This document shows, in pieces, positions 6,640 to 58,335 of a stretch of DNA of 64,000 nt. The DNA comes from Carcharhinus longimanus (Eukaryota), in the NCBI GenBank assembly GCA_030264375.1, contig JASCQW010000027.1, positions 26,760,105 to 26,824,104 of the forward strand, written 5' to 3'. Position 1 is the first letter of the stretch, and each line of letters opens with the position of its first letter. Under the pieces are notes generated by a model. The model worked only from the letters and a program-made list of their open reading frames with translations, ran no database searches and had not been told where the DNA came from. The translations under genes and the position numbers were made by a program.

Positions 6640-6750
6640 CAATGTTGGCTCTGTTTTCCCTCCACAGATGCTGTAAGACCTGCTGAATTTTTTTTCAGCA
6701 TTCTCTGTTTTTGTTTCAAATTCCAGCATCCACAGAATTTTGCTTTTATC
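6640..6750 (+). mobile_element. Penelope-type short repeat, family 2 (3' part, no ribozyme core)
   Basis: ctccacagatgctg..agacctgctga..ttttt.cagcatt..tttca.attccagcatcc.cag, shared with copies at 45-46 kb, 56.65 kb and 58.2 kb. Confidence 0.7.
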
Positions 6751-7785: not shown

Positions 7786-7970
7786 CAATGGGTTAGCTGT
7801 AAAGTCTCGCATTCTAATCAGTATTCTGTAAACTGTGTGTGCCTTTTTATGCCCTTCTCTGATCAGAACTTTCCACACACCTGACGAAGGAACAGCATTT
7901 CCGAAAGCTTGTGGGTTTACTATCAAATAAACTGGTTGGATTTTAACCTGATGTTGTGAGCCTTCTTATT
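7786..7970 (+). mobile_element. Penelope-type terminal repeat, family 1, with minimal hammerhead motif
   Basis: cac-CTGACGA-a-ggaa.cagcat.ttcc-GAAA-gc-TT-gtg at 7878-7913, then aaataaac..gttgga.tttaacc.g.tgttgtgag. Confidence 0.75.
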
Positions 7971-45080: not shown

Positions 45081-45220
45081 TAAAAGCAAATTACTGCGGA
45101 TGTTGGAATCTGAAACCAAAGCTTTGACAAAGGGTCATCTGGACTCGAAACGTCAGCTCTTTTCTCTCCTTACAGATGCTGCCACACCCTGCTGAGATTT
45201 TCTGGCAATTTTCCTTTTCA
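45081..45220 (+). mobile_element. Penelope-type short repeat, family 2, with hammerhead motif and inverted end segment
   Basis: gct-TTGACAA-a-gggtc.atctg.gactc-GAAA-cg-TC-agc at 45121-45157; 45081-45120 is the reverse complement of the family's 3' end. Confidence 0.78.
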
Positions 45221-45439
45221 TTAGAGCATGTTTACTTTGTTAGTGAGGACACATCGCGTTTCTACGGTTCTGATGATAATGTGAACATGTTAATGTTCTG
45301 TGTCGCATTCAACAATGTGAGTATAAACTCCAAAAGCCAATTCGCCCGATCAGATTTACGCGTTAAAAATTGCACCATTCGTACACATCTACTTTCTGTT
45401 CGATCATGTATCTTGTGTCATTCAGGACACTTAAAAGCA

Positions 45440-45765
45440 ATAACGTGCATTGAGGAAGCACCTTTCTTGACCTCAGGATGTCACACGGTGCTTTCCAGCC
45501 AGCGGAATGTCACTGGAAGGCGGGACATTTGTGATGCAGGAAACATTCCCTCCTCCAAACGAGTCCTCGCCCACATCAGAGAGAGAAGGACCTGGTCGTC
45601 AGTTTTGATGGCATTCAGCGAGGAACGAATACGGGCCAGGAAACGGGGCACAGCTCCCATCTTCGCCTTCAAAATCGTACCACAGGAGAGGGTGTGCCTT
45701 CCCTTGGTCGACTCTCAGCTTTGGAGCGGGACATGAACCTATCACCTTGCGACTCAGCTATCTGA
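45440..45765 (-). mobile_element. DeuSINE-like SINE, degenerate, CpGs retained
   Basis: gcacctttc.tgacctcaggatgtc..gcttt.cagcca..ggagcgggac.tgaacc..accttgcgactcag. Confidence 0.55.
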
Positions 45766-45864
45766 ATCAAGAAGGCAACCCTATATTTGTAACATCTATT
45801 TAAAAAATGTTTTGAACCTGATTTATTTAATAGCTATCGAGCAGCAAAGCACGGCGTCATTCAG

Positions 45865-46335
45865 TAAAAGATGACCCTTCGTCTGAGCTCTGAAATCCAA
45901 ATCCGAAGCGTTGGCTCTATTCTCTCTCCACAGATGCTGCAAGACCTGCTGAGATTTTGCAGCATTTTCTATTTTTGTTTCCGATTCCAGCCTCCGCAAT
46001 ATCCGCTTTTGTCGTTCAATAAAGGTTATGTTCCGAAATTGGGAAGAATAACTGACATTTATATAGACTTAATCCCAGCAACATTCAATATCTACACCTG
46101 CCCGAGAGAAAATGCTGGAAAATCTCAGTAGGTCTGGCAGCATATGTAAGGAGAGAGAATAAAGCTGATGTTTCGAATCCAGGTGACCCTTTGTCTAAGC
46201 ATATGTTTGAGTTTTGACATAGATTCATCTGGACTCGAAATGTCAACTCTTTTCTCACCTTACAGCCGTTGCCAGACCTGCTGAGATTTTCCAGCTTTTG
46301 TTTTTCTTTTTAAATACTGCAGATGCTGCAAATCT
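45865..46335. mobile_element. Cluster of family-2 Penelope-type repeats in both orientations
   Basis: Plus copy about 45900-46012, minus copy 46105-46200, plus copy 46212-46305. Confidence 0.75.
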
Positions 46336-56651: not shown

Positions 56652-56735
56652 ATAAAAGCAAATGACTGCGGATGCTGGAATCTGAAACAAAAAGAGAAAA
56701 TGCTGGAAAATCTCAGCAAGTCTGACAGCATGTGT
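56652..56735 (-). mobile_element. Family-2 Penelope-type repeat, 3' part
   Basis: taaaagcaaatgactgcggatgctggaatctgaaac..aatgctggaaaatctcagca. Confidence 0.7.
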
Positions 56736-57651
56736 GCATGTGAGAGAACAAAGCTCGATGAATGAGCAACAAGGAGCTGTAATTATCCCTGAAACTAGAT
56801 GNNNNNNNNNNNNNNNNNNNNNNNNNNNNNNNNNNNNNNNNNNNNNNNNNNNNNNNNNNNNNNNNNNNNNNNNNNNNNNNNNNNNNNNNNNNNNNNNNNN
56901 NNNNNNNNNNNNNNNNNNNNNNNNNNNNNNNNNNNNNNNNNNNNNNNNNNNNNNNNNNNNNNNNNNNNNNNNNNNNNNNNNNNNNNNNNNNNNNNNNNNN
57001 NTAAGCTAACGGCTAGTAACGAGGCTAATGCTACTTTTAGCTTCACTGCCTTTTTTTTAAAGCAACAGGATCTGATTCAGCATGGATTAAAACAGCAGTT
57101 TGGAGGGTTGCAGGGCAGGAAGGGCTTTGCAGCACAATAAGGCAGTCGCCATCAAGAGAACTAAAAGTATCCCACCCCCAACCCCCCTCTTTCAGAGTTT
57201 GCAGCTTGATTATACGACACCAGCTATTTATCAATTAGCCTGGGTGCTGGGCTGACCGCTGCCGATGCACTGAAGCCTGGAATGAGTGAGCCAGCAATTC
57301 CCCCTCTTTGCCGTTTTGTGCAAGAGGATTGACACAAAGGCAGTGAGAAAAGATGTGAAAGAATAAATAATGGATCATCTCTGCATCCCTTTGAGAAACG
57401 GGTTACAACTACCAGTAAACACTGATGACGAACCGGCAGAGAGTTGATCGCCTCGCAATTCAGAAGCGATGCCAGACAGCTGACGGATTGCAATAGGATT
57501 TTGGTCTTAGATTATTCTGCTACTTCTGGATCCTTTTCGCACATGAATATANNNNNNNNNNNNNNNNNNNNNNNNNNNNNNNNNNNNNNNNNNNNNNNNN
57601 NNNNNNNNNNNNNNNNNNNNNNNNNNNNNNNNNNNNNNNNNNNNNNNNNNN

Positions 57652-58170: not shown

Positions 58171-58335
58171 TAAAAGCAAATTGCTGTCGACATTGGAATC
58201 TGAAACCAAAGAAAAAAAGGCTGGAAAATCTCAGCAGGTCTGGCAGCATCTGTAAGGAGAGAAAAGAGCTGACGTTTCGAGTCCAGATGACCTTTTGTCA
58301 AAGTTGATTTTCCAACATTTTCTGTTTTGGTTTGT
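58171..58335 (-). mobile_element. Family-2 Penelope-type repeat with hammerhead motif
   Basis: Minus strand reads TTGACAA-a-aggtcatctggactc-GAAA-cg-TC-agc (58268-58304). Confidence 0.78.

Follow-up and report, generated by a model that had tools for sequence, protein, structure and literature searches.

A U3-A8 minimal hammerhead in an old, probably Neptune-type Penelope-like element of Carcharhinus longimanus and its C3-G8 sister subfamily

The window, by which we mean the whole stretch of 64,000 nucleotides that was analyzed (Carcharhinus longimanus, assembly GCA_030264375.1, contig JASCQW010000027.1, forward strand positions 26,760,105 to 26,824,104), carries at 45120-45158 on its plus strand a motif of 39 bases which reads AGCT TTGACAA A GGGTC ATCTG GACTC GAAA CG TC AGCT. 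The motif belongs to a repeat family which is classified here into two subfamilies, A and B, and the copies of this family that bear on it in the window are given below with their window coordinates.

45081-45120, minus strand: inverted arm made up solely of the last approximately 40 nt of the element (the PLE 'tail'), head to head with the hammerhead; its reverse complement matches the tail of subfamily A
45120-45158, plus strand: subfamily A minimal type I hammerhead, by reading of the sequence, which fits the hammerhead descriptor
45159-45218, plus strand: remainder of the short pLTR copy, which ends near the first common 3′ end (approximately +100)
45870-45890, minus strand: short inverted arm of a subfamily B copy, with C3-G8 and U4A
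45886-46008, plus strand: direct arm of that subfamily B copy, with a damaged core and B-type diagnostic sites 3′ of the core (alignment row L001/2294-2393)
46107-46201, minus strand: left arm of a head-to-head subfamily A pair, with U3-A8, U4A and a decayed ACGU
46210-46310, plus strand: right arm of the same subfamily A pair (46107-46310), with U3-A8, A9U and a damaged stem II
58174-58305, minus strand: second subfamily A copy with a tail, in which U3-A8 is kept and G10.1 and one base of stem I are changed

The hammerhead stretches of the other subfamily A copies lie at 58267-58305 (-), 46163-46201 (-) and 46209-46248 (+). An earlier sequence-only reading of this DNA had reported that the same core recurs at 58268-58304; the U3-A8 pair is indeed present there, on the minus strand, but the copy is not otherwise the same, having G10.1 changed to A along with a change in stem I. 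The two degraded copies which it listed were recovered at 46164-46200 (minus, U4A) and 46212-46246 (plus, A9U). Its partial copy at 45870-45890 (minus) does carry C3-G8, with U4A in the same core, and is the inverted arm of the sister-subfamily copy at 45886-46008. The 16-mer spanning the cleavage site has 4 matches in the window against 0.12 expected from shuffles. Two further fragments of the A/B family, at 6641-6748 (+) and 56653-56754 (-), are without a hammerhead core, one of them being B-type and one ambiguous. Three A/B insertions fall within 1.2 kb at 45081-46310, far denser than in the position-chosen sample described below. Target-site duplications of 7 nt or more were found at none of the four window insertions, and tblastn with the frame of the element (see below) found no piece of it within the 64-kb window. 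An unrelated third family of minimal hammerheads with C3 is present at 7881 (+), 11235 (-) and 52869 (-).

Direct reading confirmed the sequence and fold which had been proposed for 45121-45157, and since stem I has 4 bp (AGCU/AGCU) the motif spans 45120-45158, slightly wider than first given. The core UUGACAA occupies 45124-45130, with U3 at 45124 and A8 at 45129, and an extra A at 45131 stands between position 9 and 10.1. Stem II has 5 bp (GGGUC/GACUC) and is closed by the pair G10.1-C11.1. GAAA at 45147-45150 is followed by CG, by U and by C17 (45154), after which cleavage is predicted; the palindromic ACGU lies at 45150-45153 and the cleavage triplet is GUC. Helix III and the loop contacts of canonical retrozyme hammerheads are absent, while the type I core, the Watson-Crick 3-8 pair, the palindrome and the extra base are those of the minimal hammerheads of Penelope-like elements (PLEs).

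In the best predicted fold of the monomer the GAC of the core pairs with the GUC triplet (-9.8 kcal/mol against -8.3 kcal/mol for the hammerhead fold), and in the dimer the energy model gives the hammerhead fold -14.9 kcal/mol against a minimum of -23.2 kcal/mol; in monomer and dimer alike such models favour an inactive pairing of the core with the triplet. Stem I together with the GUC triplet is nearly complementary to the start of the core. A scan of the whole window with Rfam gave no hammerhead match at E<=5, which is explained by the minimal architecture and not by the U3-A8 core alone, because the window also holds motifs of another family with C3-G8, and these were equally missed. The earlier caution that searches needing CUGANGA would overlook the U3-A8 family proved sound, as that descriptor misses at least 4,399 copies in the genome, the lower bound for the copy number of subfamily A.

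The element that carries the hammerhead was identified from copies which continue beyond it. Sixteen of the 122 loci extend upstream of the motif, and two of these (L041 and L050) have approximately 1.2 kb in common there. The genome was searched with this stretch and the best 40 of 10,811 candidates were scored, giving long copies in which the open pieces are a decayed reverse transcriptase (RT) and then a GIY-YIG endonuclease (EN). These copies run uninterrupted from the motif into the RT-EN frame, and the hammerhead lies approximately 380 nt 3′ of the stop of that frame, i.e. in the PLE pLTR. Pfam searches of the open stretches gave RVT_1 with a best E of 1.5e-4 and GIY-YIG with a best E of 1e-3, both below the gathering cut-offs; the best named homologues of the frame are from sharks and rays with 54-58% identity, and other matches carry RVT_1 and GIY-YIG domains. 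The order is thus that of an EN+ PLE, a single frame with RT and then a C-terminal GIY-YIG, as read from decayed copies with weak Pfam scores, and the Penelope partner which the sequence-only reading had asked for has been found in this decayed form. A Pfam scan of five short decayed frames gave no element domain and matched only an unrelated nearby RT. Another RT which is decayed and unrelated to the element (RVT_1, E 2.2e-6) was seen at L143:4779-5887, on the opposite strand from a long copy and upstream of it.

Among the nine extended loci neither a full-length copy with two direct pLTRs nor an intact frame was found, and the longest shared stretch is about 2 kb. The Neptune clade of PLEs is marked by a CX2-5CxxC linker before the endonuclease and by a CCHH motif (10.1101/2021.04.23.441226); the protein of the element has a CX4CX2C linker and a CX2C..H..H motif, which by the scheme of that paper fits Neptune and not Penelope/Poseidon, and the element is likely a Neptune PLE. 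Outside CpG columns the long copies are 8.1% from their own majority sequence, and their tree is near-star with few sub-lineages. The element reads as an old Penelope-like retrotransposon.

Copies were classed as A or B from eight sites 3′ of the core only, and loci which had been picked for what they carry at positions 3 and 8, or because they resembled the window copy, were left out of the classing, as were too-short and ambiguous copies. Subfamily A (n=102) has 94 copies with U3-A8, 3 with U3-G8, 1 with C3-A8, 1 with C3-G8 and 3 with another state, and subfamily B (n=45) has 21 with C3-G8, 18 with C3-A8 and 6 with another state. C3 is found in 2 of the 101 readable A copies vs 40 of the 45 B copies (Fisher p about 8e-28), so positions 3 and 8 are linked to the subfamily, and the double change marks a whole repeat subfamily as the sequence-only reading had supposed. 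The subfamilies are about 90% identical. In 285 kb of position-chosen sequence there are 1 A copy and 11 B copies, which would scale, with a wide error, to roughly 10^4 A and 10^5 B copies genome-wide. The same subfamily A is present in contigs of three other organisms and of one further run, where C at position 3 makes up less than 5% of the depth; the family is therefore not confined to the genome of C. longimanus.

The dinucleotide at positions 7-8 separates what the masters carried from what happened to the copies. In subfamily B it is CG in 8 copies, TG in 11 and CA in 19, which is the pattern of a decaying CpG by which G8 is lost. In subfamily A it is CA in 92 of 102 copies and never TG. 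The master of A therefore already had A8, and an origin of the A8 of subfamily A by mere CpG decay after insertion is ruled out. The unrelated minimal-hammerhead family has C3 in all 12 fetched copies and G8 in 93 of the first 100 among at least 3,987 matches, and C3-G8 is accordingly the likely ancestral state.

Exact matches with one fixed flank were counted across the 2.68-Gb genome, giving 796 for U3-A8, 44 for C3-A8, 21 for U3-G8 and 11 for C3-G8. The expectation that C-G and U-A would both stand far above the mixed states fails on this single flank (796/11/65), where the 65 mixed matches outnumber the 11 with C3-G8, and it holds once the copies are sorted by subfamily. Eight of the 11 exact C3-G8 matches are B, 1 is A and 2 are unclear; 20 of the 21 with U3-G8 are A; and among the 30 of 44 C3-A8 matches that were examined 16 are point changes of A, 9 are inverted-arm junctions, 3 are B and 2 are unclear. 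Background rates in A copies are 31/536 (5.8%) for A>G and 19/908 (2.1%) for T>C, and the mixed states can be accounted for by CpG decay together with background mutation. An intermediate master with U3-G8 or C3-A8 was considered and rejected on the frequencies of these two states, which are at the background level. The C3-A8 matches were likewise rejected as a separate class, 9 of the 30 being junctions where an inverted arm enters the core.

Several single loci deserve description. At loci L103-L106 and L121 a shared TGAC joins the inverted arm to the direct copy and produces a false C3 in the core. At L008:1440-1540 an inverted pair has TG at positions 7-8 in one arm and CA in the other, as would be expected if the source copy had been U3-G8 or if each arm had changed separately. 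Positions 17 and 1.1 (window 45154-45155) are CA in A and TG in B, with CG in locus L067, as if an ancestral CpG had been resolved oppositely in the two masters.

The ends of the copies were analyzed in an anchored set of 91 copies, which come from 90 loci among the first 100 in the list and were found by a 23-mer just 3′ of the cleavage site; this anchor leaves the hammerhead free to vary save at one place fixed by the pattern. None of the 91 starts at the cleavage site, and likewise none among 100 listed 12-base upstream strings that were inspected by eye, which argues that the RNA templates were uncleaved. The match reaches up to the first base of stem I in 54 of 91 copies, the upstream TATA segment is present in 11, and a head-to-head inverted arm in 30. 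The 3′ ends fall into two groups, one near +100 and one near +133-135; that of the window copy belongs to the former, and its approximately 40-nt tail is inverted at the 5′ side. Loose ends at the same 5′ base and the same 3′ ends are also seen in the contigs of the three other organisms and of the further run. A 5′ truncation, an inverted 5′ arm and an optional tail of 30-40 bp are all found in these copies, and such insertion features are known for PLEs (10.1101/2021.04.23.441226).

In both subfamilies a TATA box starts 30 nt before the first base of stem I, and it is on this spacing that we would place the start of transcription at the shared 5′ end. TATA-like motifs have been reported in the pLTRs of a rotifer PLE (PMC3846280), and an internal promoter without TATA is described for the Penelope of D. 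virilis (PMC2377424). A possible but less probable reading is that the boundary marks a hot spot of fold-back or template switching at the AGCT palindrome and not a transcription start: inverted arms do join at or near this palindrome, and palindromes at the inverted junctions of rotifer PLEs have been interpreted as self-priming (PMC3846280), but the majority of copies with the shared 5′ boundary have no inverted arm, and the TATA at exactly 30 nt is kept in A and B while in the surrounding 3′-UTR the agreement is down to about 55%. At 45159-45178, immediately 3′ of the cleavage site, both subfamilies have a pyrimidine run ending in CAG and then ATG, which looks like a 3′ splice site. An intron close to the 5′ end is a known trait of PLEs.

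Once inserted, the copies lose the ribozyme. In the anchored set 35% of the copies no longer have G12, each of the two CpGs has decayed to CA as well as to TG (the first CpG being CA in 25 and TG in 19), and the core, the ACGU and the G10.1-C11.1 pair are together intact in 5 of 91 copies, the window copy being among such few. The scattered copies are not under selection and decay neutrally. The sequence-only reading had taken the amplification itself as implying selection for self-cleavage, and this is not supported, as every one of the 91 sampled copies spans the cleavage site, none beginning there, and their decay is neutral.

Selection can be looked for in the master elements by comparing A with B. 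Of the 39 positions of the hammerhead they have 34 in common, or 33 if A is represented by the majority of the long copies, and elsewhere they agree at only 188 of 343 columns of the 3′-UTR and at 22 of 30 four-fold sites. The five hammerhead differences are at positions 3 and 8, in loop II, at N17 (C in A and U in B, both of which are allowed) and at 1.1 (the pair is U-A in A and U-G in B), and all five are compatible with the fold. Simulations of 150,000 trials showed that five random changes retain the descriptor in 0.5-0.7% and retain it together with a 3-8 swap in 0.04-0.08%, although the family was picked for its swap and the fair figure is therefore the conditional one of approximately 4-6%, that the other changes are tolerated given the swap. 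Since the differences between A and B keep the fold and random changes do so in less than 1%, selection on the fold of the master's hammerhead is likely, and we hold it with fair confidence. It has to be weighed that the approximately 95 nt 3′ of the hammerhead are as conserved between A and B as the hammerhead itself, with 8 fixed differences, so that some of the conservation may be owed to a promoter or to protein binding, and that the 3-8 swap happened once, in a single lineage, and is for one half a CpG transition.

On a rival reading the U3-A8 swap came about by neutral coincidence, in a PLE master which had no more use for its hammerhead, both changes being fixed by drift, the one as a CpG transition at G8 and the other as an ordinary C-to-T at position 3, and the region being kept for its promoter or for protein binding. 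G8 does lie within a CpG that has decayed in most B copies, the equally conserved 95 nt downstream are not ribozyme, cleavage is not needed for insertion in the PLE of Anolis (PMC11167929), and no copy comes from a cleaved template. We nevertheless regard this as rather improbable, because the other 13 positions of the core, the palindrome and the closing pair are unchanged, including two more CpGs which are quick to decay in copies, because the other differences between A and B are confined to N17 (U or C), to one pair of stem I (U-G or U-A) and to loop II, and because the same covariation occurs in unrelated PLEs (PMC4209133).

The preferred reading, to which we give high confidence as a whole, is that an old PLE, likely of Neptune type, has a minimal hammerhead at its pLTR end, that the master swapped C3-G8 for U3-A8 with the fold likely under selection, and that thousands of short copies, which span the predicted cleavage site, have since decayed. 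The change of G8 to A8 would likely have come by CpG deamination, and C3 to U3 would have restored the pair, in either order. Transcription would begin at the first base of stem I, set by the TATA 30 nt upstream, and the RT of the element would start at one of two internal sites and copy uncleaved RNA back to the 5′ end. The PLE of Anolis has been found in vitro to have two internal RT start sites and uncleaved RNA as its main template (PMC11167929). The RNA of the shark element is predicted to cleave after C17 weakly, as a dimer through ACGU or with the help of the element protein, and such cleavage would take off the first 35 nt of the transcript.

With this position at +1 of the transcript the hammerhead may act, as a tentative proposal which we think doubtful at present, as a self-decapping switch that removes the capped first 35 nt, instead of excising an RNA of unit length. 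If this is true, the RNA would be withdrawn from the pool for insertion or translation; it would explain how the fold could be selected through the swap of the core though no inserted copy derives from cleaved RNA, and the A/B pair would be a ready natural test of the purpose of PLE hammerheads.

One could also see in the short unit a non-autonomous retrozyme or a SINE-like element, which would multiply by way of cleaved, circular or multimeric RNA and owe its copy number to self-cleavage, but this is very improbable: it would suit the thousands of short non-coding copies with common ends, and the contigs of other runs do show a small number of direct head-to-tail joints, but no tandem array is present at the motif and no head-to-tail array with a hammerhead per unit was found there, in the 91 anchored copies or in the nine extended loci, the repeated arms are head to head (30/91) with no copy starting at the cleavage site, the longer copies continue unbroken into the RT-EN frame, and canonical helix III and loop contacts are lacking.

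The animal non-LTR retrozymes do resemble the shark copies in being short non-coding repeats with a type I hammerhead and a link to PLEs, and they form head-to-tail arrays with a hammerhead per unit and give circular RNAs (PMC7229834; bioRxiv 10.64898/2026.07.22.740005), whereas those of the shark are the ends of a coding element and stand singly or head to head. A closer system is the one in which the minimal hammerhead of PLE pLTRs was defined, by Cervera and De la Pena 2014 (PMC4209133), with about 1,300 U3-A8 matches in Schistosoma mansoni tied to Cercyon elements. Like the Cercyon motif, that of the shark is a minimal type I hammerhead in a PLE pLTR with no helix III and with a U3-A8 core, a palindromic 15.2-16.2, an extra base before stem II and the G10.1-C11.1 pair, and the copies of both are mostly solo or on opposite strands (PMC4209133). 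The shark motif differs in its helix II of 5 bp, against 7-8 bp in Cercyon (PMC4209133), in its probably Neptune-type frame, and in having a sister C3-G8 subfamily of about 90% identity which shows the swap directly. The minimal hammerheads of PLEs are described in the same paper as having low activity, even as dimers.

Natural hammerheads with U3-A8 covariation were reported as a rare core variant by Perreault et al. 2011 (PMC3088659); they have the same compensatory tertiary 3-8 change and are cited there as active in vitro, and the survey section of that paper gives this activity for motifs other than a helix III-less PLE motif such as that of the shark. The Poseidon PLE of Anolis carolinensis (Frangieh et al. 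2024, PMC11167929) is alike in its pLTR hammerhead, in the two RT starts which define the tail and in its uncleaved RNA template, the last of which is inferred in the shark element. It is unlike in its C3-G8 core and in its Penelope/Poseidon clade, and its account comes from tests with purified protein where ours comes from genomic sequence. Mutants of its hammerhead left insertion in vitro unaffected (PMC11167929).

A search of the literature, whose coverage excludes most subscription journals and supplementary file 1 of PMC4209133 with its possible vertebrate cases, gave no U3-A8 PLE hammerhead in cartilaginous fish. U3-A8 is not new in the hammerheads of PLEs, and the swap, the link to PLEs and the anatomy of insertion have all been published before, so that what is gained is a further lineage and a more pointed test and not a new system. 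What is added is a close C3-G8 sister, a distinction between selection acting on the master and neutral decay among its copies, and the idea of a ribozyme at the start of the transcript. The role of PLE hammerheads in vivo is at issue, as they cleave poorly and as insertion went on without cleavage in one in vitro study. Sisters A and B, which differ by a compensatory tertiary swap, give a good argument from the genome that the catalytic fold was of importance to the master, and the pair permits a four-way test (U-A, C-G, U-G and C-A) in one natural backbone.
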